Assembly (NCBI GenBank): GCA_015056545.1
Contig: SVGE01000002.1
Coordinates: forward strand, 92,575-124,574
Direction of reading: 5' to 3'
DNA: 32,000 bases
Source: Clostridiales bacterium
Lineage (GTDB): Bacteria; Bacillota; Clostridia; TANB77; SIG350
Part shown: positions 1,083-29,252 of the stretch, in pieces
How positions within the stretch are numbered: position 1 is the stretch's first letter
How the letters are laid out: each line of letters begins with the position of its first letter
Program-made: the position numbers and the translations under genes
Notes under the pieces: model-generated
What the model was told of the DNA's origin: nothing
The model's input: only the letters and a program-made list of their open reading frames with translations
Database searches by the model: none

Positions 1083-1994
1083 ATGTTAGGGATTATATTT
1101 TTAAAAAATGAAAGTAGTTATTTAAATAAGGTTTTTAAATTAAATAGTATTAATATTATGAATATTAATAATTGTACAAAAGTAATAAATTTATGTTTTA
1201 ATAATATTGAAAAAAAACAGCAACAAATTAAATTTGTAGAAAAAATTATAAATAAATTAAAAAAGAATAATATAGATAAAGTACTTATTCAAAAAGATAT
1301 TTATATTATATCTAAGGAGTTGATAAATAAATTTAGAGAAAGTGATATTCAAATAATTACAGGAAATAATATTTATGAAAAAAATCTTAATAATATTATA
1401 ACATATATATTAGATAATAATAGTAATTTACAAATTGAACAAGTTAATTTGGGAATATTAATTAATAAAATAACATATAAAAGATTAGAATATATAAAGC
1501 AAATGGCTTCAAAAGTTAAATGTATGACTATTATTACAGAAGACAAATTAAAATTTGAAAATACATGTACAAATATATTTGAAAATGAGGGACTTTCAAT
1601 TAAATTAAGTGATAATTTTAGAAGCGGATTAAAAGGAAGTACAATAATTGTTAATTTTGATATAGAGAATAAAAATATATTAGATAATATACCGAATAAT
1701 TGTATATATATTAATTTTGGAGATTGTGCAGAAAAAATGAAAAAAAGTTTTAAAGGTATTATTGTAAATGATATTAAAGTAAAAATAGATAAAGAAGAAA
1801 ATAATTTAATTCAATATTTAGATGAAAACAAATTTAGAAATTTAGCAATTGCTGAAGCAATAACAAGGGAAGATAATAATTATTTAATAACACATTTAGT
1901 AGGTATTAAAGGAAATATTCCTATAAGTGATATTCAAAATTTTGATGTTATCAAAAGAAATAAACAAAATAGGGGAAAAAAGAATAAAAAATGA
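1083..1994 (+). CDS. Hypothetical protein (303 aa, Asn/Ile/Lys-rich)
   Basis: Long ORF with GGAGG about 9 nt upstream of the ATG. No motif recognised. Confidence 0.5.
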   Translation: MLGIIFLKNESSYLNKVFKLNSINIMNINNCTKVINLCFNNIEKKQQQIKFVEKIINKLKKNNIDKVLIQKDIYIISKELINKFRESDIQIITGNNIYEKNLNNIITYILDNNSNLQIEQVNLGILINKITYKRLEYIKQMASKVKCMTIITEDKLKFENTCTNIFENEGLSIKLSDNFRSGLKGSTIIVNFDIENKNILDNIPNNCIYINFGDCAEKMKKSFKGIIVNDIKVKIDKEENNLIQYLDENKFRNLAIAEAITREDNNYLITHLVGIKGNIPISDIQNFDVIKRNKQNRGKKNKK

Positions 1995-2073
1995 AAAAAA
2001 TATAATAATATTATAATGTAAAAAAATAATAGTTATATGAATATTAAATTACATACAAAAATACAAAATACTA

Positions 2074-2102
2074 TTGACAAAAATTAAAAAATGGAATAAT
2101 AT
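2074..2102 (+). promoter_or_regulatory. Sigma-A type promoter upstream of greA
   Basis: TTGACA (2074-2079), 17-nt spacer, TAATAT (2097-2102). Confidence 0.5.
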
Positions 2103-2160
2103 ATCATAAGTTAATAAATATAGTATATTAACAGTATATTTCGTAAAGGAGAAATGTAAT

Positions 2161-2637
2161 ATGTCAAAGGAAATTATATTAACAGAAGATGGATATAAAA
2201 AGTTAGAAGAAGAATTAGATTATTTAAAAGGTGAAAAAAGACAAGAAATTGCTGAAAGAATAAAAGTTGCTTTAGGTTTTGGAGATATTTCTGAAAACTC
2301 AGAATATGATGAAGCTAAAAATGAGCAAGCACTTATTGAAATGAAAATTGCAGAATTAGAGAATAAAATAAGAAATGCGAAAGTTATAGATGAAAGTGAT
2401 ATATCTACTAGAACTGTTAGTGTTGGAACTAAAGTTAAATTATTAGATATTGAATATGATGAAGAAATTGAATATTCAATTGTTGGTATTACTGAAGTAG
2501 ATTTAGAAAATAACAAAATATCTAATGAATCACCAATTGCGGCTGGTTTAATTGGTAGAAAAAAAGGTGAAACTGTGGATATTGATGTTCCAGCAGGGAA
2601 AATATCTTTTAAAATACTTGGTATTTCAAAATTATAA
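2161..2637 (+). CDS. greA: Transcription elongation factor GreA
   Basis: 158 aa. N-terminal coiled-coil [17 protein letters not shown]...[11 protein letters not shown]...[13 protein letters not shown] is the classic GreA signature. AGGAG RBS. Confidence 0.95.
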
Positions 2638-2691
2638 TGCTTAATTATATTAGTAATAAAAAATATTTATATAAAAAATATATATAATTTA

Positions 2692-2721
2692 TTGACAGGT
2701 ATAAATTATATATGTTAATAT
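2692..2721 (+). promoter_or_regulatory. Promoter of the pyrG leader (extended -10)
   Basis: TTGACA (2692-2697), 18-nt spacer containing TGt, TAATAT (2716-2721). Confidence 0.5.
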
Positions 2722-2744
2722 TAGCACATATTAATTTTAATTAT

Positions 2745-2810
2745 AAAATAGATTAAAAAAAAACCCCTTTTTTCGGGAACTTTTTCTTAATCTATTTTTT
2801 GTTTTTTTTA
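2745..2810 (+). terminator. Leader hairpin plus U-tract between the pyrG promoter and pyrG (putative attenuator)
   Basis: AAAATAGATTAA (2745-2756) pairs with TTAATCTATTTT (2787-2798). Inner A-run/T-run pairing and CCC/GGG pairing (2764-2777). Followed by TTGTTTTTTTT. Confidence 0.5.
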
Positions 2811-2840
2811 AAATAAAAGGGGTGTGAAAGGAGTTAGATT

Positions 2841-4415
2841 ATGAATACAAAGTATATTTTTGTAACAGGTGGAGTAGTATCAGGTTTAGGAAAAGGAATA
2901 ACAGCTGCAGCATTGGGAAGATTACTTAAAAATAGAGGATATAAAGTTGTTATACAAAAATTTGACCAATACATAAATATTGATCCTGGTAAAATGAATC
3001 CAATAGAACATGGTGAAGTTTTTGTAACAGATGATGGAACAGAAACAGATTTAGATTTGGGGCATTATGAAAGATTTATTGATGAAAATTTAACTTGCAA
3101 ATCAAGTTTAACAACTGGAAAAATATATTCTAGCGTAATTAATAAAGAACGTAGTGGAGAATATGGAGGAAAAACTGTACAAGTTATACCACATATAACT
3201 AATGAGGTTAAAGAAAATATATATTCATTTAAAAATACAGATGTAGATATAGTAATTGTAGAAATAGGAGGAACTGTTGGAGATATAGAAGGTCTTTATT
3301 TAATAGAAGCAATAAGACAAATAGGTACTGAAAATTTAAAGGAAGATGTAGCATATGTTCATGTAACATTACTTCCATATATATCAGGGTCTAATGAATT
3401 AAAATCTAAACCAACACAACATTCAGTAAAAGAATTACAATCTTTTGGTATAAAACCAGATATATTAGTATGCAGAAGTGATGTTCCTATTCCTCATGAA
3501 TTAAAAGAAAAAATATCTCTTTTCTGTAATGTTACCCCAGATAATGTTATTGAAAATAAAACTGTAAACTGTTTATATGAAGTTCCATTAATGCTTGAAA
3601 AAGAAGGTTTAGGTAATCAAATATGTAAACATTTACAAATAGAAAATAAAGTGGATAATAAAAAATGGGAAGAAATAGTTAACAAATATATATATGCAGA
3701 AAAAGAAATTAATATAGCAATAGTAGGTAAATATACACAACTTGAAGATTCATATTTGTCTGTTATTGAAAGCATTACACATGCTGGTATTAACAATGAT
3801 GTTAAAGTAAATATAGAAATAATCAATTCAAATGAATTATTAGAAGAGAATGTAAAAGAAAAATTAAGTAAATTTAGTGGAATAATTGTTCCGGGAGGTT
3901 TTGGAAAAGAAGGAACTGAAGGAAAAATTATAGCAATAAAATATGCAAGAGAAAATAATATACCTTTTTTAGGTATTGGTTTAGGAATGCAACTTTCAGT
4001 AATTGAATTTGCTAGAAATGTTTTAAATATTAAAGATGCTACTACTGAAGAATTTGATAAAACAGCAGAAAATAAAATTATACATATAATAAGTGATAAT
4101 AGTAATACAATGAGATTAGGAAGTTATCCATGTTTATTAAAAGATAATTCACTTGCACATAACATATATAATGAGAAAACAATAAATGAACGTCATAGAA
4201 ATAAATATGAATTTAATAATAGCTATTTAGAAATTCTAGAAAATAATGGAATGATAGTTTCTGGAAAATCAGTAGATGGAAGATTTGTTGAAATAGTTGA
4301 AATACAAAATAATAAATTTTTTATAGGAACACAATTTCATCCAGAATTCAAATCAAGACCTAATAGACCAGCGCCTTTATTTGATAGTTTAATTAAAGCT
4401 TGTATAATTAAATAA
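2841..4415 (+). CDS. pyrG: CTP synthase
   Basis: 524 aa. N-terminal YIFVTGGVVSGLGKGI, and a C-terminal glutamine amidotransferase domain (GICLGMQ-like GIGLGMQ, FHPEF). Confidence 0.97.
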   Translation: MNTKYIFVTGGVVSGLGKGITAAALGRLLKNRGYKVVIQKFDQYINIDPGKMNPIEHGEVFVTDDGTETDLDLGHYERFIDENLTCKSSLTTGKIYSSVINKERSGEYGGKTVQVIPHITNEVKENIYSFKNTDVDIVIVEIGGTVGDIEGLYLIEAIRQIGTENLKEDVAYVHVTLLPYISGSNELKSKPTQHSVKELQSFGIKPDILVCRSDVPIPHELKEKISLFCNVTPDNVIENKTVNCLYEVPLMLEKEGLGNQICKHLQIENKVDNKKWEEIVNKYIYAEKEINIAIVGKYTQLEDSYLSVIESITHAGINNDVKVNIEIINSNELLEENVKEKLSKFSGIIVPGGFGKEGTEGKIIAIKYARENNIPFLGIGLGMQLSVIEFARNVLNIKDATTEEFDKTAENKIIHIISDNSNTMRLGSYPCLLKDNSLAHNIYNEKTINERHRNKYEFNNSYLEILENNGMIVSGKSVDGRFVEIVEIQNNKFFIGTQFHPEFKSRPNRPAPLFDSLIKACIIK

Positions 4416-4425
4416 ATATACACAA

Positions 4426-4467
4426 GGAACATATTGTGAATTATACAATATGTTTTCTTTTTTTTAT
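4426..4467 (+). terminator. Rho-independent terminator of pyrG
   Basis: AACATATTGT (4428-4437) pairs with ACAATATGTT (4445-4454), followed by TTCTTTTTTTT. Confidence 0.7.
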
Positions 4468-4537
4468 AAAAAAATACAAATTTAGACTTTATCTTTTGAA
4501 TAATATATGCTATAGTAATTTTGTGAGGAGAAGATTT

Positions 4538-6076
4538 ATGAAAAAAATAATAAAAATAATATTTTTAAGTATGATATTTTGTTTGATTTTTGTAATATCG
4601 TCTTTTGCAACAACAAATTATTTAATAGATGAAAAAGAATATGAATACACAGGAAAAGACGTTACAGTAAAATATAATGATGAGAAAATGGAATTTGATG
4701 TTCCACCAATAATACATAATGATAGAACTCTTTTGCCTATTAGAGCTTTAATTGAAAAATTAGATGGAACTGTTGAATGGGAAGAAAAAACAAGATTAAT
4801 TACTATAGAAGTTGATGATAAAAAAATAGGAATGCAAATAGGAAACAAAAAGGCTAGTGTAAATGGAAAAACAGTAGAGTTAGATGTTGTACCATGTATT
4901 GCTTATCAATTTGGAAATGCTGATTTAGGAAGAACTGTTGTCCCTATAAGATTTGTAATGGAAAATTTGGGTTTAGAAGTTAAATGGGATCAAGAAACAT
5001 ATACTGTTTTAGTTTTAAATGAAAATGATAAAAAAGATGAAAATAATTCTTCAGAAAATAATGAAAGCAACAATCAAGAGGAGCAAGAACCAGAGGAAGA
5101 AAAACCATTTGAATTTTCAAATACAGTTGAAAAAGTTAGTTATACATTAAACAATAATAATATTGTTATTAAGATAACTACTTCAAAAGCGATGGAATAT
5201 ACAGTATCAAATTACCATAACCCTGAGAGAACGGTTATAGATATTAATGGTGCACAATTTAATTGTTCACAAAAAGAGCAAAAAATTGAGCAAGGAACGG
5301 TGCAGAAAATACGTTTAGGACAAGGAGATAAATATGCAAGAGTGGTTATAGATTTAGCGGATGTATCTGTATATACTAAAACAACTAATACTGCAAAAAC
5401 AGAATTATATATTACATATAGAATAAAGAAAGATTATAGTGAAAAAGATGAATTTATTGTTGTTTTAGATCCAGGACATGCTGCTGGAACTGTTGGAGCA
5501 TATTATGGAGGAATTGCAGAAGAAGAAATTACAGCAGATGTTGTAAATAGAGCTTTAAAATTATTTGAAAAAGAAAAAAATATAAAAGTGTATAGTACAC
5601 AAAAAGATCAAAAGATACCAGGACTTCAAGATATAGCAAATTATGCTAATAATTTAAATGCAGATTTATTTGTTAGTGTACATTGTAATGCAGCAGCAGA
5701 TGATAAAGGTAATCCATTAGATACAGTATCTGGAACAGAAACTTTTTATGCTATACGTGATCAAGAAATTATTGATGGAGAAGATACAATTACATTAAAT
5801 ACAGATAAAGAGTATTATGGAATAACTAGTAAACAATTAGCTGACTATATACAAAAAGGTATTATAGGCAATTGTGAAAGTAATGATAGGACAATAAAAG
5901 AAAGAGGAACATTAGCTGTACTTAGATATACAAATATGCCAGCTTGTTTATGTGAATTAGAATTTATGACTTCTGAAGAATCTTTAAATAATTTAAAAGA
6001 TGAAGATTATAGACAAAAATGTGCACAAGGGTTATATGATGGAATTATGAATGCAATAAAATATATGCAAAAATAG
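4538..6076 (+). CDS. Secreted N-acetylmuramoyl-L-alanine amidase (copper-amine-oxidase-N-like stalk repeats plus Amidase_3 domain)
   Basis: The true start is probably ATG 4538, with GAGGAG RBS at 4525-4530; the ORF-track start 4436 lies inside the pyrG terminator. Signal peptide MKKIIKIIFLSMIFCLIFVISSFA. Repeats DRTLLPIRALIEKLDGTVEW and RTVVPIRFVMENLGLEVKW. Amidase_3 motifs VVLDPGHA and DLFVSVHCNA. Confidence 0.85.
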   Translation: MKKIIKIIFLSMIFCLIFVISSFATTNYLIDEKEYEYTGKDVTVKYNDEKMEFDVPPIIHNDRTLLPIRALIEKLDGTVEWEEKTRLITIEVDDKKIGMQIGNKKASVNGKTVELDVVPCIAYQFGNADLGRTVVPIRFVMENLGLEVKWDQETYTVLVLNENDKKDENNSSENNESNNQEEQEPEEEKPFEFSNTVEKVSYTLNNNNIVIKITTSKAMEYTVSNYHNPERTVIDINGAQFNCSQKEQKIEQGTVQKIRLGQGDKYARVVIDLADVSVYTKTTNTAKTELYITYRIKKDYSEKDEFIVVLDPGHAAGTVGAYYGGIAEEEITADVVNRALKLFEKEKNIKVYSTQKDQKIPGLQDIANYANNLNADLFVSVHCNAAADDKGNPLDTVSGTETFYAIRDQEIIDGEDTITLNTDKEYYGITSKQLADYIQKGIIGNCESNDRTIKERGTLAVLRYTNMPACLCELEFMTSEESLNNLKDEDYRQKCAQGLYDGIMNAIKYMQK

Positions 6077-10311: not shown

Positions 10312-11646
10312 ATGGAAAAAAATAATATAAATGCAAGAGAAATTGCATTAAAAATATTATATAAAATAGATAAAGAAAATGCATATTCTAATATAGTTTT
10401 AGATAGTTTTTTAAAAGAATATAATTTGGAAAATAGGGATAAAGCTTTTATTTCTCAGCTTGTTTATGGCAGTATTACATATAAAATTACATTAGATTAT
10501 ATTATTTCAAAACATTCTAAAATAAAACTAAAAAAAATTTCAGATTGGATACTTAATATACTAAGATTAGGTGTTTACCAAATAATGTTTTTAGATAAAA
10601 TACCTAAAAGAGCAATTGTTAATGAAAGCGTTAATTTAGCTAAAAAGTATGGACATATAAAATCTTCAGGTTTTGTAAATGCTATGTTAAAAAACATATC
10701 TGAAACTGAATTAGATGAATTAAGTTTTTCTAATGAAATAGACGAACTTTCAATTAAAACATCACATGAAAAATGGTTTATTGAAAAATTAATAAAAGAA
10801 TATGGATTAGATAATGCAAGAAAGATATGTGAATATAATAATATTGAGCCACCTGTATATATTAGAATTAATGTATTGAAAACAACGATTGATGAATTTA
10901 GAAATAAATTAGATAAATTAGAAATTAAATATGAAGATGGAATAGTTCCTAATACTTTAAAAATAGAAAAATTAAATGGCTTACTTGAAAGTGAATTATT
11001 TAAAAATGGATATTTTTCTATACAAGATAATGCGGCTAGTTTAGCTTCATATATTTTGAATGTAAAAGAAGGAGAAAATGTATTAGATATGTGTAGTTCA
11101 CCTGGTGGAAAAACTGCACATATGGCAGAAATGATGAAAGATAAAGGAACAATTACAGCTTGTGATGTTTATGAGAATAGACTTAGTTTAGTTAAAAAAA
11201 CAGCTAGAAGATTAGGTATAACTTGTATTAAAACTAAATTAAATGATGGTACTAAATTAAATAATGAATTTATTGATAAATTTGATAAAGTGTTAGTTGA
11301 TGCACCATGTAGTGGGTTAGGAGTTATTAGAAGAAAAATAGATATCAAGTATCAAAAGGCAGAAGAAGATATTGATGAAATAAAAAATATTCAATATTTG
11401 ATTTTGAAAAATGCAAGCCAATATGTAAAGCTAAATGGAGAGATTGTATATAGTACGTGTACAATATTTAAAGAAGAAAATGATGATATAATAAATAAAT
11501 TTTTAAAAGAGAACTCTAATTTTAGATTATTAGATATATCAGATAAAATAAAAGATAATATAAATAAAAATGGATGTATTCAAGTGCTTCCACATATACA
11601 TAATTTAGATGGCTTTTATATAGCAAAACTTGAAAGAATATCTTAA
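10312..11646 (+). CDS. rsmB: 16S rRNA (cytosine967-C5)-methyltransferase RsmB/Sun
   Basis: 444 aa. NusB-like N-terminal domain plus a SAM methyltransferase domain with DMCSSPGGKT and VDAPCSGLGVIRR. Confidence 0.9.
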   Translation: MEKNNINAREIALKILYKIDKENAYSNIVLDSFLKEYNLENRDKAFISQLVYGSITYKITLDYIISKHSKIKLKKISDWILNILRLGVYQIMFLDKIPKRAIVNESVNLAKKYGHIKSSGFVNAMLKNISETELDELSFSNEIDELSIKTSHEKWFIEKLIKEYGLDNARKICEYNNIEPPVYIRINVLKTTIDEFRNKLDKLEIKYEDGIVPNTLKIEKLNGLLESELFKNGYFSIQDNAASLASYILNVKEGENVLDMCSSPGGKTAHMAEMMKDKGTITACDVYENRLSLVKKTARRLGITCIKTKLNDGTKLNNEFIDKFDKVLVDAPCSGLGVIRRKIDIKYQKAEEDIDEIKNIQYLILKNASQYVKLNGEIVYSTCTIFKEENDDIINKFLKENSNFRLLDISDKIKDNINKNGCIQVLPHIHNLDGFYIAKLERIS

Positions 11647-11670: not shown

Positions 11671-12363
11671 GTGTCTGAAAATAAAAAATATGTTATAGCA
11701 ATTGATGGGCCAGCTGGAACTGGTAAAGGTACAATTAGCAGGCTAGTTGCTAAAAGAATAGGTTTTGTCTTAGTTAAAACAGGAGATATGTTTAGAGCTA
11801 TTACATATAAAATGGTTAAAGAAAAAATTAAACTTGACGAAATAGATAAAATAATTAGTTTATTAGATAATATTGACTTAGAATTTAAGTATATAAATGG
11901 ACAACAAGTTTCTATCCTAGATGGTGAAGAATTAAATGACGAGCTAAGCATTAAAGAAGTACAAGATAATGTTTCACAAGTATCTGTTATAAAAGAAGTA
12001 AGAGATAAGGTATTAAAATATGAAAAAGATATTGCTAAAAAAGAAAATATAGTAATGGAAGGCAGAGATATTGGAACAACAGTGTTTCCAAATGCTGATG
12101 TGAAGATTTATTTAATTGCAGATTTAGAAGAAAGAGTTTTGAGAAGATATAATCAATTAAAAAAACAAGGGATAAATAATATATCAAAAGAAGAGGTTAA
12201 GCAAAATTTTATATTCCGTGATGAAAATGATAAAAATAAAAAATACGGTGCATTAAAACAAGCTGAAGATGCTGTTGTTGTGGATAATAGTCATAGAGAA
12301 ATAGAGGATACTGTTAATGAAATTATTAATATAATAAAAGAGAAGATAGGAGAGATTTGGTAA
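11671..12363 (+). CDS. cmk: Cytidylate kinase
   Basis: GTG start with a GGGGGA RBS. P-loop IAIDGPAGTGKGT. Typical length of 230 aa. Confidence 0.93.
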   Translation: MSENKKYVIAIDGPAGTGKGTISRLVAKRIGFVLVKTGDMFRAITYKMVKEKIKLDEIDKIISLLDNIDLEFKYINGQQVSILDGEELNDELSIKEVQDNVSQVSVIKEVRDKVLKYEKDIAKKENIVMEGRDIGTTVFPNADVKIYLIADLEERVLRRYNQLKKQGINNISKEEVKQNFIFRDENDKNKKYGALKQAEDAVVVDNSHREIEDTVNEIINIIKEKIGEIW

Positions 12364-12947
12364 TGATATTTTGGTTTATAGTAAAAAGTATTATTTGGTT
12401 TTTATACAAATTAGTTTTTCAAGTAAAAATAGAAGGAGTGAAAAATATACCTAAACAAGGAGGAGCATTAATTTGTCCTAATCATGTTCATTTTTTAGAT
12501 GGCCCTTTAGTTGTTGTTGCACTTAATAGAAGAGTTAATACAATGTCAAAAGCTGAAGCATTTAAGCCTGCACTATTAGGTTGGCTTATGAAAAAGATGG
12601 GCTGTTTCCCAGTTCAAAGAGATAAAAGAGATTTCGGCTCATTAAAAAAATGTATTACTATGTTAAAAAAAGGTGAATTAGTAACTGTATTTCCAGAAGG
12701 AACTAGAAATGGTTTAGAAAAAGGAAAAAAACTAGGAAAAGGTGCAGCATTTTTACTTATGTCAGCAAAAGTTCCTTTAATACCTGTTGGGATAACTGGT
12801 AAATATAAACCTTTTGGTAAACTAAAAATTAAATTTGGTGAACCAGTATCATTTGAAGAGTTTTATGGTATGGAGAAGGATAAAGAAGTTTATGAAAAAG
12901 TAAACGAAAAACTTTTATTAAATATTCAAAATCAATTGACAAATTAA
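12363..12947 (+). CDS. plsC: 1-acyl-sn-glycerol-3-phosphate acyltransferase
   Basis: Acyltransferase motifs NHVHFLD (HxxxxD) and FPEGTR. The likely ATG at 12363 overlaps the cmk stop (TAATG). Confidence 0.85.
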   Translation: MIFWFIVKSIIWFLYKLVFQVKIEGVKNIPKQGGALICPNHVHFLDGPLVVVALNRRVNTMSKAEAFKPALLGWLMKKMGCFPVQRDKRDFGSLKKCITMLKKGELVTVFPEGTRNGLEKGKKLGKGAAFLLMSAKVPLIPVGITGKYKPFGKLKIKFGEPVSFEEFYGMEKDKEVYEKVNEKLLLNIQNQLTN

Positions 12948-13013
12948 GAATAATATTAGATAATATAAAAGCGTTTGATACGCAATTTAGATTAAGGAAG
13001 GAAAGATTTAGAT

Positions 13014-14084
13014 ATGGAAAATTTTGAAGAAATGTTAGAAAATTCATTTAAGGCAATAGTGCCAGGAACAACAATTAAAGGAGAAGTTTTATCAGTAACT
13101 GATGATGAAATATTTGTTAATATCGGATATAAAGCTGATGGTATTGTAGCAAAATCTGATTTATCTTATGATGAAACAAAAAATCCAAATGATTTATACA
13201 AAGTAGGAGATACGATTGAAGTATATGTTGTTAAATTAAATGATGGTAGAGGAAATGTTGTTTTATCTACTAAAAAATTAGAAGAAAGTAAATTAAAAGA
13301 AAAATTTGATAATGCTGTAAATAGTAATGAAACTATTACTGTTAAAGTTTCTGAGATTTTAGAAAAAGGTGTTAGAGCAAATTACTTAGGTAATAGAATA
13401 TTTATACCAGCAAGTCAATTAGTAAATAGAGATGTTAATTTTTATCAAGGAAAAACTATTGAAATAAAAATAATAGAAAATCAAGATAGAAGAATTATTG
13501 GTTCTGAAAGAAAAGTTAATTCTGAATTAAAAGAAAAACAAGCACATGATACAATGTTATCTATAAGAGTTGGAGATATTGTTAAAGGAACTGTAAAAAG
13601 AATTAATGAATATGGTGCATTTGTAGATATTGGTGGAGTAGAAGGTTTATTGCATGTATCTCAAATGACATGGAAAAGAAATGTTGATCCAAAAGACGTA
13701 GTAAAAGAAGGACAAGTACTTGATGTTGAAATTATAGAATTAGATAAAGAAAAAGGAAGAATAGCTTTAAAATCTAAAAAAGATGAAGAAAATCCTTGGA
13801 ATGAAGTAGGAACTTCTGTAATAGTAGGTTCAGTATTAGATGTAACAGTATTAAGATTAGTTGCATTTGGTGCTTTTGTTGAAATTAAGCCAGGATTAGA
13901 AGGATTTATTCATATTTCACAAATTTCTACTGAAATGATTAAAGCTCCATCAGATGTTTTAGAAATTGGACAAACTGTTACCGCAAAAGTTGTTGTAATT
14001 GATACAGAAAAAAATAGAATTGAACTTAGTGTTAAAGCTTTAAGTGAAAAAGTAGAAGAAAAAGAAGAAACTGTAGAAGAATAA
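13014..14084 (+). CDS. rpsA: 30S ribosomal protein S1 (four S1 domains, short Firmicutes form)
   Basis: Repeated S1 OB-fold modules (G.V..V...G.FV.IG...G..H.S). The cmk-plsC-rpsA order is typical of Firmicutes. Confidence 0.9.
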   Translation: MENFEEMLENSFKAIVPGTTIKGEVLSVTDDEIFVNIGYKADGIVAKSDLSYDETKNPNDLYKVGDTIEVYVVKLNDGRGNVVLSTKKLEESKLKEKFDNAVNSNETITVKVSEILEKGVRANYLGNRIFIPASQLVNRDVNFYQGKTIEIKIIENQDRRIIGSERKVNSELKEKQAHDTMLSIRVGDIVKGTVKRINEYGAFVDIGGVEGLLHVSQMTWKRNVDPKDVVKEGQVLDVEIIELDKEKGRIALKSKKDEENPWNEVGTSVIVGSVLDVTVLRLVAFGAFVEIKPGLEGFIHISQISTEMIKAPSDVLEIGQTVTAKVVVIDTEKNRIELSVKALSEKVEEKEETVEE

Positions 14085-15790: not shown

Positions 15791-15864
15791 AGGGGTATAG
15801 TTCATCGGTAGAATAACGGTCTCCAAAACCGCTGAGCTAGGTTCGATTCCTAGTACCCCTGCCA
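15791..15864 (+). tRNA. trnW: tRNA-Trp (anticodon CCA), CCA end encoded
   Basis: Folded by hand. Acceptor AGGGGTA/TACCCCT, anticodon loop CTCCAAA, T-arm CTAGG-TTCGATT-CCTAG, discriminator G, 3' CCA. Length 74 nt. Confidence 0.93.
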
Positions 15865-26902: not shown

Positions 26903-26932
26903 TTGACAAAACTTATGTAACCTTGATATAAT
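26903..26932 (+). promoter_or_regulatory. Strong extended -10 promoter directly after the clpC stop
   Basis: TTGACA (26903-26908), 18-nt spacer ending TGa, TATAAT (26927-26932). No terminator lies between clpC and this promoter. Confidence 0.65.
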
Positions 26933-26978
26933 AATCGAGGCAAATCTCGAAATATTATAATAAGGAGGCATAGTTATT

Positions 26979-27581
26979 ATGCAAAACAGAATGGATGAAT
27001 TAATGAAATTGTCAGCATTTGAACTTCAGAAGCGGGCAGTAGCAGGTCTTATTGCAATAATTGAAGATACTGATGTTACTGCTAAGATTGTAGAAGAAGC
27101 AATTGAAACTTTACCGGAAGCGCTTAATCAGCTTAATATTGCAGCAGAATATTATAATGCTGTATATGATGAAGTATATGATGAAGCTGTTGAAGATTTT
27201 CTTGAAGATCTGGAAGAAATCGGTTTATGCGCTTGTGATGATGACTGCGATGAATGCGAATGTGAAGAATGTGAATGTGAAGGCGAGTCTTGTTGTTGTT
27301 TCAGAGAAGTTAAAGAAATTAATAACTCTTTTTGCCCTCATGGAGAATGTTTGTGTAAAGAACCATGTGAAGAGTGTCATCGCGAAGAAGATGAATGTAT
27401 AGGATATGAATGTGATTCATATGCTGTTCCTTGCGAAGAAGGAGAAGAGGACGGTTATTCAGATGAAAAACCGGAATTTTGCAAATGTGATAAAACATGC
27501 GTAGGCTGTGAAGAAAAACAGAAAGGATGTATGGGCTTAGACTGTCCCAATTGTCAAAATCCTCGTGAATGTGATGAATAA
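26979..27581 (+). CDS. Cysteine/acid-rich protein (200 aa, 26 Cys in the C-terminal ~125 aa), function unknown
   Basis: AAGGAGG (26962-26968) upstream of the ATG, with its own promoter and terminator. The sequence runs CACDDDCDECECEECECEGESCCC...CPHGECLCKEPCEECH...CKCDKTCVGCEEKQKGCMGLDCPNCQNPRECDE. Codons such as CCG, GCG, CGC, CAG, CTG and GGC are frequent here and rare in the neighbouring genes. Confidence 0.75.
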   Translation: MQNRMDELMKLSAFELQKRAVAGLIAIIEDTDVTAKIVEEAIETLPEALNQLNIAAEYYNAVYDEVYDEAVEDFLEDLEEIGLCACDDDCDECECEECECEGESCCCFREVKEINNSFCPHGECLCKEPCEECHREEDECIGYECDSYAVPCEEGEEDGYSDEKPEFCKCDKTCVGCEEKQKGCMGLDCPNCQNPRECDE

Positions 27582-27590
27582 TCACATATA

Positions 27591-27618
27591 ACCATGAGAG
27601 TGGTGAAGTCGTAACAAG
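27591..27618 (+). other. 28-nt 16S rRNA-like composite (5' and 3' strands flanking helix 44 fused head to tail)
   Basis: ACCATGAGAGT (27591-27601) is followed immediately by GGTGAAGTCGTAACAAG (27602-27618). From memory, both match the conserved 16S 3'-domain strings ...CACACCATGAGAGT... and ...GGGGTGAAGTCGTAACAAGGTA.... Confidence 0.7.
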
Positions 27619-27652
27619 AAAGAGACTAGGATATATTCCTAGTCTTTTTCTT
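27616..27652 (+). terminator. Terminator of the Cys-rich gene
   Basis: GAGACTAGGA (27622-27631) pairs with TCCTAGTCTT (27637-27646) around a 5-nt loop. The stem can extend to 27616/27652. Followed by a T-rich tail. Confidence 0.8.
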
Positions 27653-27676
27653 ATATAAGAAAAAATAAAAAAACTA

Positions 27677-27705
27677 TTGATAAGTTAATTTACATATGAT
27701 AATAT
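27677..27705 (+). promoter_or_regulatory. Extended -10 promoter of the G10 mini-gene
   Basis: TTGATA (27677-27682), 17-nt spacer ending TGa, TAATAT (27700-27705). Confidence 0.6.
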
Positions 27706-27727
27706 AACTACGAAAGAGGTGAGAAAA

Positions 27728-27862
27728 TTGTCAAATAAAACCAAAGTAATATGCCATAAAGTGCTAAATACTAGGGGGGGGGGTGTTTATAGAATAAGGA
27801 CATCTTTAATTGGCATGCCAAAAAATATAGAGAACTTAAGAATATATTACGAAAAAACGTAA
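27728..27862 (+). CDS. Candidate 44-codon mini-ORF (MSNKTKVICHKVLNTRGGGVYRIRTSLIGMPKNIENLRIYYEKT) containing the G10 tract
   Basis: TTG start 5 nt after AGAGGTGAG (27715-27723). The frame is open only at the present G10 length. The stop (27860-27862) lies inside the downstream terminator stem. Coding status is uncertain. Confidence 0.3.
   Translation: MSNKTKVICHKVLNTRGGGVYRIRTSLIGMPKNIENLRIYYEKT
27774..27783 (+). repeat. Homopolymeric G10 tract
   Basis: Read directly; the longest G/C run I saw in the window. Confidence 0.99.
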
Positions 27863-27887
27863 TGTAGTCTTAGGTTCTTTTAATTTG
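27832..27887 (+). terminator. Long hairpin plus U-tract (terminator/attenuator) ending the mini-gene transcript
   Basis: GAACTTAAGA (27832-27841) pairs with TCTTAGGTTC (27868-27877). Inner stem ATTACG/CGTAAT with an A6 loop. Followed by TTTTAATTTG. Confidence 0.65.
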
Positions 27888-27915
27888 CCAAAATTAAAAA
27901 GATACATTTTGGCAA
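27885..27915 (+). other. Perfect 10-bp hairpin in the leader of the pilin-like gene
   Basis: TTGCCAAAAT (27885-27894) pairs with ATTTTGGCAA (27906-27915). It overlaps the U-tract of the preceding terminator. Confidence 0.5.
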
Positions 27916-27973
27916 TAATAAAATAAAGAGCCGAGGAAGGGAGGAAATAAAAAGAAAAAATACAACAAAACAG

Positions 27974-28002
27974 TTGAAGTAAAACCAAAAGTGTTATACA
28001 AT
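27974..28002 (+). promoter_or_regulatory. Candidate proximal promoter of the pilin-like gene
   Basis: TTGAAG (27974-27979), 17-nt spacer, TACAAT (27997-28002). Confidence 0.45.
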
Positions 28003-28014
28003 AAAATTGTATAA
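27994..28014 (+). promoter_or_regulatory. Perfect 9-3-9 palindrome (candidate operator) overlapping the -10
   Basis: TTATACAAT-aaa-ATTGTATAA. Confidence 0.5.
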
Positions 28015-28046
28015 TAACAAATTTAAAATTCAAAGGAGGAAAAAAT

Positions 28047-29252
28047 ATGAAAAATTTAAAGAATAGTAAAACATCAGGTATAAGCTTAGTTGCACTAATA
28101 GTAACAATAATTGTGCTAATAATATTAACAGCTGCAGTTATTGTAACTTTTATGGAAGGTGGCATAATAGAAAAGGCAAAAGAGGCGGTATTTAAAAGTG
28201 ATATAAGAACATATCAAGAAATACTAGCAGTAAAGAATGCAGAAAAACAAATAGAATTAGCAACCGGAAATGGAGAAGGTGGATTATATAATGAAACAGA
28301 TTATGACAAAATCAAAGAAATAATTCCCGAATTTAAAGAAGAATATAAAGATTTAATAGCAATAAGTAATGGAGAAATAGTATTAGGAACAAGAAGTGAA
28401 GACCCATATAGCATATGGCTAGCCGATTTAGGAATAGGAGTAGCAAAAACATCAGTAGTAGCATTATTAGAAGTAGGAGACTATGTAAATTATGATATAC
28501 CAGGAGGAACATATGAAATACCGGCAGAAGATAGACGTTGGATATATAATAATGTTAATGGTGAAGAAAGTTATGAAATTGGTTATCAAGATATAATGTG
28601 GAAAGTATTAAAAAATGATGGAACAGAAGTAACTTTAGTAAGTGAAGAATCAGTTGAAAATATATACTTATTGATTGATGATGCGAATGCAGGAAAAAGC
28701 CGAGCTTATTTAAATGGACCAGACAGATTAGATGCAATATGTGAAACCGTATATGGAGGAAGAAACTTAAAAGTTGAAGATGTTAATGAAGTGCTTAAAA
28801 TAGAGCCAAAGCCATCGTACTATAATTCAGAAGGAACACAGGTATATAAAGAATTAGGAGCAACATTCGGAGATGCAATAGAAGAGGACGGATATGATGT
28901 AAGCGGATGGGATAAACCAGAAAATTATGAGAATATACCTTTATATTATAGCTATACAAAATCAGATTGTGTAAATGTAGGTGAAACAGAAAAAGATATG
29001 ATATTTGCACAAGATAATTACTGGTTATCATCATCAAGTATAATAGTATATTTTAATCATGTGTATGTAGAGTACCCATTGTTAGTTGTAGATAATGATA
29101 GTTTGACACAATGGGAGTTATATCCTACTGGTGATGGAGATTTATATGATGTTTGCGGTCTTCGTCCAGTTGTAACATTAAGTGCAAGTACACAAATAGC
29201 AGATGTTACAGGTGATGGTTCTAGTGCAGATAATGCATGGCAATTAAAATAA
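28047..29252 (+). CDS. Pilin-like / pseudopilin-like secreted protein (401 aa) with an atypical N-terminal segment
   Basis: AAAGGAGG RBS. The N-terminus MKNLKNSKTSG-ISLVALIVTIIVLIILTAAVIV resembles a class III (prepilin) signal but has Ala where Glu5 is expected. Large C-terminal globular part. Confidence 0.7.
   Translation: MKNLKNSKTSGISLVALIVTIIVLIILTAAVIVTFMEGGIIEKAKEAVFKSDIRTYQEILAVKNAEKQIELATGNGEGGLYNETDYDKIKEIIPEFKEEYKDLIAISNGEIVLGTRSEDPYSIWLADLGIGVAKTSVVALLEVGDYVNYDIPGGTYEIPAEDRRWIYNNVNGEESYEIGYQDIMWKVLKNDGTEVTLVSEESVENIYLLIDDANAGKSRAYLNGPDRLDAICETVYGGRNLKVEDVNEVLKIEPKPSYYNSEGTQVYKELGATFGDAIEEDGYDVSGWDKPENYENIPLYYSYTKSDCVNVGETEKDMIFAQDNYWLSSSSIIVYFNHVYVEYPLLVVDNDSLTQWELYPTGDGDLYDVCGLRPVVTLSASTQIADVTGDGSSADNAWQLK

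Follow-up and report, generated by a model that had tools for sequence, protein, structure and literature searches.

The closest described counterparts of the element reported here are the pil1 and pil3 loci of Streptococcus gallolyticus, in which GCAGA repeats inside a leader open reading frame (ORF) shift the position of its stop codon relative to a transcription terminator (Danne et al. 2014, PMC3894217). When the stop lies 28 or more nucleotides (nt) upstream of the terminator, expression is low; when it lies within or near the terminator, expression is high, and the effect depends on translation (PMC3894217). We describe a locus that appears to follow the same logic, positions 27677-27887 of a 32,000-nt stretch (the window, whose coordinates are used throughout) of contig SVGE01000002.1 from an uncultured Clostridiales bacterium. 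It consists of a promoter, a 44-codon leader ORF containing a run of ten G, and an intrinsic terminator, and it stands ahead of a gene for a protein of 401 amino acids (aa). Judging from sequence, we put at about 0.68 the probability that it is the control module of a phase-variable transcription attenuator, that is, a heritable and random ON/OFF switch.

Every structural element of the pil1/pil3-type mechanism can be recognized here: a promoter, a short leader ORF with its ribosome-binding site, a repeat within that ORF, and a stem-loop terminator before the structural gene. As in pil1/pil3, a change of frame moves the leader stop between a place well upstream of the terminator and one inside it, and the 35-40 nt that separate the upstream stops from the hairpin fit the threshold of at least 28 nt; both hosts are Firmicutes, and both modules gate surface structures, putatively so in the present case. 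The two share no sequence homology, however, and there is no GCAGA array in the window leader; the resemblance is mechanistic and not by descent. The repeat is a homopolymer of G8-G11 rather than 13-25 GCAGA units; one frame of three is predicted to be ON, whereas in pil1 both out-of-frame repeat classes are high; an extra conserved hairpin carries the OFF-frame stops; and the module, which serves two pilus operons in S. gallolyticus, here precedes at least nine paralogs of a single genome, and probably more than 20. These departures, homopolymer for pentanucleotide, a single ON frame, the added hairpin, and amplification across a gene family with a member targeted by a diversity-generating retroelement (DGR), are what is new in the proposed mechanism relative to pil1/pil3. 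A full-text literature search found no homopolymer-based leader-attenuation switch.

Three other systems share part of this design. The poly-G and poly-C contingency loci of Campylobacter, Neisseria, and Helicobacter carry tracts of 8-11 nt that change by ±1 and act through the reading frame. A poly-G ON/OFF example is available from C. jejuni (PMC11955535). Unlike the classical contingency loci, where the tract lies in the structural ORF or in the -35/-10 spacer, the tract here is in a separate upstream leader ORF, and its effect would be on transcription termination, not on protein truncation. Both classical arrangements were considered for the window and rejected: the tract begins 69 nt after the -10 hexamer of the leader promoter (P1), and no usable -35/-10 pair flanks it on either strand; it ends 264 nt before the ATG at 28047, and the 401-aa ORF has no run of G or C longer than five. 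In the pyrBI leader of E. coli, an ORF of about 44 codons is read through an attenuator hairpin, a ribosome following closely behind the polymerase blocks that hairpin, and the system senses UTP-dependent polymerase pausing. The present leader likewise runs some 44 codons into a hairpin; unlike in pyrBI, the input would be a heritable frameshift. The vlp genes of Mycoplasma hyorhinis form a phase-variable surface family with conserved 5′ cassettes and a poly-A tract in the promoter spacer. Here too there are many paralogs with a near-identical promoter, leader, and N-terminus and one homopolymer each, an arrangement suited to combinatorial surface variation, but the tract is in a translated leader upstream of a terminator and not in a promoter spacer.

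An initial annotation, made from the letters of the window, had called the run of ten G highly anomalous. It is the sole run of G or C longer than five in 32 kb of DNA with 25% G+C, where the chance expectation for such runs is about 5e-4. The promoter, Shine-Dalgarno (SD) sequence, TTG start, 44-codon ORF, stop within the hairpin, and U tract that the annotation placed around the run are all found where it put them (Table 1), and its hand translations with G9 and G11 were both correct: the leader ends ...GGVFIE* at TAA 27795-27797 with G9, and ...GGGCL* at TAG 27790-27792 with G11. Both of these stops fall in the loop (AUAGAAUAA) of a small hairpin, hairpin 2, whose stem includes the end of the tract. 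At the base composition of the window, a 44-codon open frame would arise by chance with a probability of about 0.007. The start at 27728 is favored over GTG 27719 because paralogous copies show ATG at exactly the equivalent of 27728; the stop falls in the 3′ arm of the terminator hairpin. That hairpin has its closing G-C pair at 27832/27877, with outer pairs extending to 27830/27879, and a predicted energy of -23.3 kcal/mol in silico; the U tract occupies 27878-27887. The whole predicted transcript has a z of -4 relative to shuffled sequences and folds better than 200 of 200 of them. A further hairpin upstream of P1 insulates the cassette from transcription arriving from the preceding gene, and the other copies of the cassette described below are likewise placed after an unrelated, terminated gene.

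Table 1. Coordinates of the leader cassette and its flanking features in the 32-kb window
Feature	Position	Strand	Description
Upstream terminator hairpin and T run	27623-27653	+	Stem AGACTAGGA/TCCTAGTCT, then TTTTTCTT; ends the gene for the 200-aa protein
Promoter P1 (extended -10)	27677-27705	+	TTGATA 27677-27682, 17 nt, TAATAT 27700-27705, TG 27697-27698; promoter scan
SD of leader ORF, GAGGTGA	27716-27722	+	Direct sequence reading; G(A/G)GGTG in all cassettes
Leader ORF, 44 codons, predicted ON frame at G10	27728-27862	+	TTG start 27728, TAA stop 27860-27862
Poly-G tract, hypervariable, G10	27774-27783	+	Codes Gly-Gly-Gly; sets leader reading frame
Hairpin 2	27779-27807	+	Stem of final tract G's and UGUUU paired with GGACAUCUUU; 9-nt loop AUAGAAUAA
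Intrinsic terminator (putative attenuator)	27830-27887	+	21-pair hairpin 27830-27879, loop AAAAAA, U tract UUUUAAUUUG
Spacer, 5′ untranslated region (UTR) of structural gene	27888-28046	+	Palindrome; weak P2-like site 27974-28002; SD AAGGAGG 28033-28039
Structural gene, 401 aa	28047-29252	+	Large paralogous family; proposed gated gene

The module most likely operates as follows. A transcript from P1 would carry, in order, the short leader ORF, the strong intrinsic terminator, the 160-nt spacer, and the 401-aa gene, and slippage during replication would lengthen or shorten the poly-G tract by one nt. In the ON frame (G10 here, with G7 or G13 equivalent), all 44 codons would be translated up to the stop in the 3′ arm, and the ribosome would occupy the hairpin as RNA polymerase crosses the U tract; termination should then fail and the structural gene be transcribed. 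In either OFF frame the ribosome would be released at TAG 27790 or TAA 27795, 35-40 nt before the pair at 27832, the hairpin would form, and transcription would end at about 27885. Hairpin 2 may pause the polymerase and so let the leader ribosome catch up.

The frame toggle that the initial annotation proposed draws support from comparative data, namely a tract length that differs between assemblies, a conserved cassette before at least nine paralogs, a geometry with one frame in and two frames out, and the pil1/pil3 precedent. A unit of about 390 nt, from the promoter to the downstream start codon, precedes at least nine paralogs of the 401-aa gene, each with a tract of G8-G11. It begins with P1, SD, ATG/TTG-TCAAAT, the invariant block AAAGTGCTAAATACTA, and the G tract. 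The two hairpins come next, first the small one and then the large one with the U tract, and a spacer of about 160 nt leads on to a second SD and the family gene. We fetched the loci of six paralogs (P0002, P0003, P0006, P0010, P0027, P0033) and of two leader peptides; P-numbers denote proteins of the family or leaders, and L-numbers denote fetched contigs of other assemblies. Seven of the nine cassette-bearing paralogs were found through the structural protein, irrespective of the leader, and the genes behind cassettes include leucine-rich-repeat variants and one DGR target. At all fetched loci the unit has the same orientation and lies immediately 5′ of a family member, with unrelated upstream neighbors each time; in some 150 kb of fetched sequence, G runs of eight or more are confined to the cassette context, and no cassette stands alone, away from a family member. 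Most paralogs have GnA where the window has one additional G, and a paralog G9 thus equals G10 in the window.

Conservation within the unit is uneven. The promoter, SD, start codon, and hairpin are intact in 9/9 cassettes, and P1 equivalents (TTGAAA, TTGATA, TTGCAA, or TTGTAA, 17 nt, TRTGnTA..) are kept in all nine as well as in a divergent relative, L038. Leader codons 4-10 diverge freely between these intact copies, and gene conversion alone therefore does not explain the conservation. Beyond this family, an exact search with the cassette pattern GTGCTAAATACTAGGGGGG and a PriA-based scan gave no match among the GTDB representative genomes, a collection without this lineage; the 21-nt hairpin arm, scanned against a metagenome collection, matched nothing but one unrelated contig of eukaryote-like character (L017), a search of viral contigs gave no match, and a profile search of 1.84 billion representative proteins recovered only this family and one divergent 42-aa relative (P0079).

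To compute the geometry of the reading frames, we located the leader stop of each cassette with the tract as observed and with its length changed by ±1. In every cassette exactly one frame reaches the terminator, where its stop lies 27-47 nt beyond the first nucleotide of the conserved TTAAGAAT motif, which begins 4 nt inside the closing pair of the hairpin, and the remaining two frames stop 26-44 nt before that motif, near the 5′ end of the hairpin; in the window the two OFF stops precede the closing pair by 35 and 40 nt. The pattern is kept through insertions and deletions. A 1-nt deletion after the tract in L015 makes G10 rather than G9 the ON length, and in L024 and P0072-P0075 the leader crosses the hairpin in the +1 frame (..RELKNILRKNVM*) or continues to a stop beyond the U tract. 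Because these copies read the hairpin in different frames, it is kept as nucleotides and not as codons.

The leader could nevertheless be a relic, the leftover original 5′ end of the gene (promoter, SD, and about 17 codons) held similar among copies by gene conversion, with a promoter in the spacer driving the gene and the G tract having no regulatory effect. Such a history has a real basis in L038, where (positions 1-200) the homologous promoter, SD, ATG, and 'AGTTTTAAATACT' block (AGT..TAAATACT) continue directly into the mature protein (MIKKSNKNYQLVLNTHKLG/ISLV..); the first 17 or so codons of this homolog align with the leader cassette, and it has no G tract, hairpin, spacer, or separate leader. 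Because the block runs into the mature protein there, the leader ORF probably derives from the ancestral 5′ coding end of the family. (For both distant homologs, L038 and L039, the contig reaches no more than about 100 nt 5′ of the gene.) The lack of synonymous change in blocks such as AAAGTGCTAAATACTA, which are kept at the nucleotide level, also fits a relic, as do two features of the window spacer. One is a weak P2-like site (TTGAAG, 17 nt, TACAAT); the other is a perfect palindrome, TTATACAAT-AAA-ATTGTATAA, at 27994-28014, 33 nt before the structural start codon, which is invariant in 7 of 10 aligned cassette sequences (L018 and L019, counted among the ten, share one leader cassette), is absent from the DGR-linked L024, and might be bound by a dimeric regulator as its operator or fold as a hairpin in the 5′ UTR. 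The paralogs, however, do not keep the P2 -35 hexamer, the stretch from terminator to gene has no promoter-like site in L010, L031, or L024, and the spacer of L024 is only 64 nt, the longer spacer of the other copies being absent. P1 is the only conserved promoter, and its transcripts must therefore pass the terminator to reach the gene. A strong terminator between a conserved promoter and its gene would be pointless in a relic, and neither its intactness in 9/9 copies, along with P1, SD, start, and open frame, beside leader codons and spacers that diverge and carry indels, nor the persistence of the one-in, two-out geometry across indel variants, would be expected. We consider a relic without regulatory effect unlikely.

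A switch should differ in state between populations, and the tract does differ in length between assemblies. Exact-protein look-ups of both flanking genes led to independent metagenome contigs (JGI, ENA, Logan), and all comparisons are between consensus sequences of separate assemblies. At the window locus the tract is G9 in L002 and L005, G10 in the window, L003, and L004, and G11 in L001 and L008, and the 480-nt intergenic region is otherwise identical among contigs except for a low-quality contig end in L008. The variability that the initial annotation anticipated is thus seen among related assemblies, as three lengths at this locus and as 1-nt flips at three others: P0002 (G9/G8), P0010 (G9/G10), and P0033 (G9/G10). 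Four of the seven loci found independently of the leader show both ON and OFF lengths across samples, and at every locus the lengths cluster within ±1 of the ON length. In four clean pairs the G tract is the single difference over the entire alignment (window and L001, 8603 nt; window and L002, 5162 nt; L010 and L011, 7209 nt; L035 and L037, 5972 nt), and no run of A or T changes length in any of them; the only other homopolymer difference is A5 versus A4 between L015 and L016, at a contig end. Two leader peptides, P0069 and P0071, are identical except for one extra Gly, which would correspond to G9 versus G12, as read from the peptides alone. For most loci, the protein collection has the leader in frame on only 1-2 contigs (one each for P0002, P0010, and P0033), against 13-21 for the structural proteins, and the leaders P0075 and P0067 are in frame on 15 and 10 contigs, respectively. 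These counts hint that most loci are mostly OFF and two mostly ON, with the caveats that gene callers are inconsistent on 44-codon ORFs and that the samples are probably related.

The same observations bear on the possibility that the length differences arise in sequencing or assembly and that the tract is fixed in cells, in which case the cassette might still act as an attenuator, either constitutive or ribosome-sensing. Illumina indel errors increase in long G runs. Contigs often end at or near the cassette (L006, L008, L009, L021-L023, L030, L033), and the terminal sequence is visibly poor in L008 and L033. Against an artefact, the differences lie in mid-contig consensus and are found at four loci, nothing else differs over 5-8.6 kb in the cleanest comparisons, where A and T runs are unchanged, one leader peptide pair differs by a whole Gly codon, and the lengths cluster about the ON length. 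We regard a purely artefactual origin as improbable.

Might the unit instead be a gene in its own right? A small RNA or small basic protein, tuned by the G tract and simply ended by the terminator, would account for the compact promoter-ORF-terminator organization, for the folding of the transcript (z = -4), and for the 14 in-frame leader versions called as genes in the protein collection. The peptide itself shows no sign of constraint. Among six leaders of equal length, variable sites fall at codon positions 1, 2, and 3 in the numbers 7, 13, and 11, the amino acid is altered in 19 of 20 variable codons, and the ON frame contains no stop among the 35 substitutions seen (chance P of about 0.06). 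An open frame with a free peptide sequence is, on this comparison, the pattern expected of a regulatory leader ORF. The initial annotation had offered the basic 44-aa peptide as one of the switched products; with its sequence unconserved, it is unlikely to act as one. The C-terminus is read in two frames in different copies, the leader has no Pfam or NCBIfam match, Rfam gives no match at E values up to 10, and throughout the 150 kb or so of fetched sequence the unit always faces the same way ahead of a family member and never stands by itself. A stand-alone gene is thus very unlikely.

At the RNA level, the terminator varies little: its energy ranges from -21.6 to -23.3 kcal/mol across nine cassettes, and all changes in it are one-sided, between G-U and A-U. 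Each cassette also folds into hairpin 2 (-7 to -11 kcal/mol), and one of its pairs runs U-A, U.G, and C-G across copies; these are per-sequence folds, a column-wise covariation count having been dropped with the stem of L027 offset by one column. A search for an antiterminator with RNAalifold gave no structure beyond the terminator, hairpin 2, and a weak helix between TTGACAT and the region of the start codon, and none of them showed compensatory changes. In the window, the sole gathering-level match in Rfam 15 is a tRNA (15791-15861, 60.5 bits), and at E values up to 10 the best hits within 27500-28150 are unrelated snoRNA and miRNA models (best E about 0.5), with no known RNA family. That the tract acts through RNA, either by polymerase slippage on G9-G11, slippage at homopolymers being a known phenomenon, to give a fixed mixture of frames (a rheostat) or by tuning hairpin 2, with whose stem the final three to four tract G's pair in all copies, seems equally remote, given that length differences are seen directly in DNA, that hairpin 2 folds identically with G9, G10, and G11, and that the conserved three-frame stop pattern points to reading-frame logic.

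Several considerations weigh against a phase-variable attenuator as we have drawn it. Transcription-translation coupling is poor in Bacillus subtilis and, if this holds here, ribosome-mediated antitermination would be weakened. The terminator shows no compensatory double changes, and its conservation may reflect recent homogenization. The P2-like site and the conserved palindrome could drive or regulate the gene independently of the terminator. An assembly consensus over G9-G11 can be wrong, and some lengths may be errors or cross-paralog chimeras, because reads from paralogous cassettes share some 20-50 nt on either side of the tract. The samples appear, from their names and from identical sequences, to come from related enrichments and hence not to be independent populations. 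Finally, the anatomy, its conservation, the polymorphism in tract length, and the frame geometry are seen in the sequences, and replication slippage as the source of that polymorphism, the efficiency of termination, read-through that depends on the ribosome, and the pause are inferred from them.

The gene proposed to be gated belongs to a large family, listed at NCBI under one metagenome-assembled genome ('Clostridiales bacterium', locus tags E7311_*). It has at least 10 full-length paralogs with 45-66% identity, and a dozen further paralogs share only the N-terminal 130 or so aa and have other C-termini, some with BspA-type leucine-rich repeats. The N-terminal 100 or so aa, with a hydrophobic anchor (..KTSG/ISLVALIVTIIVLIIL..), are near-invariant, and the C-terminus is variable; next to 45-66% identity in the remainder, this suggests concerted evolution or strong constraint on the cassette and anchor domain. 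The structural model (AlphaFold2) of the 401-aa protein is confident, with a predicted local distance difference test score of 83.6, but no entry of the PDB matched it significantly, either with Foldseek or by sequence profile. The initial annotation called the downstream gene pilin-like, a label that did not hold up in Pfam and NCBIfam. A type IV prepilin was rejected: the sequence ..KTSG/ISLVAL.. has Ala, not Glu, at +5, and there was no Pfam or NCBIfam match at E values up to 1. A divergent homolog (P0019 on L038, 43% identity, from another sample) adjoins T2SSF, T2SSE, and ParA/CbiA-like genes (1619-5396), and this neighborhood, resembling Tad or type IV pilus-like machinery, is the only hint in favor of the label. 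Upstream of the cassette and just after clpC, positions 26903-27581 hold the gene for a 200-aa protein that is very acidic, has many Cys-x-x-Cys motifs, and has no match in Pfam or NCBIfam; a perfect sigma-70-type promoter (TTGACA, 18 nt, TATAAT, TG; 26903-26932) precedes it, and it has its own terminator.

Some copies of the cassette sit in flanks that differ between assemblies. L031 and L032 become identical exactly at the P1 -35 hexamer (junction 2112), with differing flanks; L018 and L019 share 10.5 kb and diverge at about 10553, within the conserved N-terminal coding region; and the cassette and gene of L022 are likewise joined to differing flanks. These junctions are either recombination or inversion between cassette copies or assembly chimeras caused by the repeats.

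A complete DGR adjoins one paralog (L024:10220-13657). Its variable region (VR, 11213-11368) is the 3′ end of a 407-aa gene and is followed by a GC-rich hairpin, a bAvd gene (11962-12306), a template repeat (TR, 12334-12489) that is 79% identical to the VR and differs from it at TR adenines, and a gene for reverse transcriptase (12701-13657). Between L024 and L025, from two samples, there are 35 mismatches in 14.6 kb, and 10 of the 12 printed mismatches lie in the VR, a clustering that suggests that the DGR is active. The ends of P0003 and P0006 are GC-rich, resemble a VR, and match the TR, and from their sequences both are plausible DGR variable proteins. The 401-aa gene of the window was rejected as such a protein; its equivalent region (about 29020-29200) is degenerate, AT-rich, and without a TR match. 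Elsewhere in L024 (866-900), G6 followed by AAGTGTTTATAT at the start of an unrelated 294-aa ORF bears a faint likeness to post-tract cassette sequence and may be a degenerate cassette copy or coincidence.

We tentatively suggest, at somewhat less than even odds, that these elements form a system of two layers: more than 20 anchored, possibly pilin-like paralogs, each gated by a poly-G leader-attenuator switch of its own, of which at least one, and possibly several, would have the ligand-binding C-terminus rewritten by the DGR, the switch itself having evolved from an ancestral signal-peptide start through the insertion of a terminator and a new start site. If so, the switches would decide which copies are ON and the DGR what those copies bind.

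In the searchable literature, phase variation by a repeat in a leader combined with a terminator otherwise rests on one experimental system, pil1/pil3, and our finding suggests that the same logic arose independently with a homopolymer. The portable cassette has apparently spread across a putative surface-protein family in an uncultured gut or fermenter Clostridiales bacterium. If our reading is true, poly-G tracts between genes can serve as contingency switches in very AT-rich Firmicutes; they would escape annotation pipelines, since these call the leader a gene only in its in-frame versions. Given the link to a DGR, one system may join stochastic ON/OFF control to targeted hypermutation.

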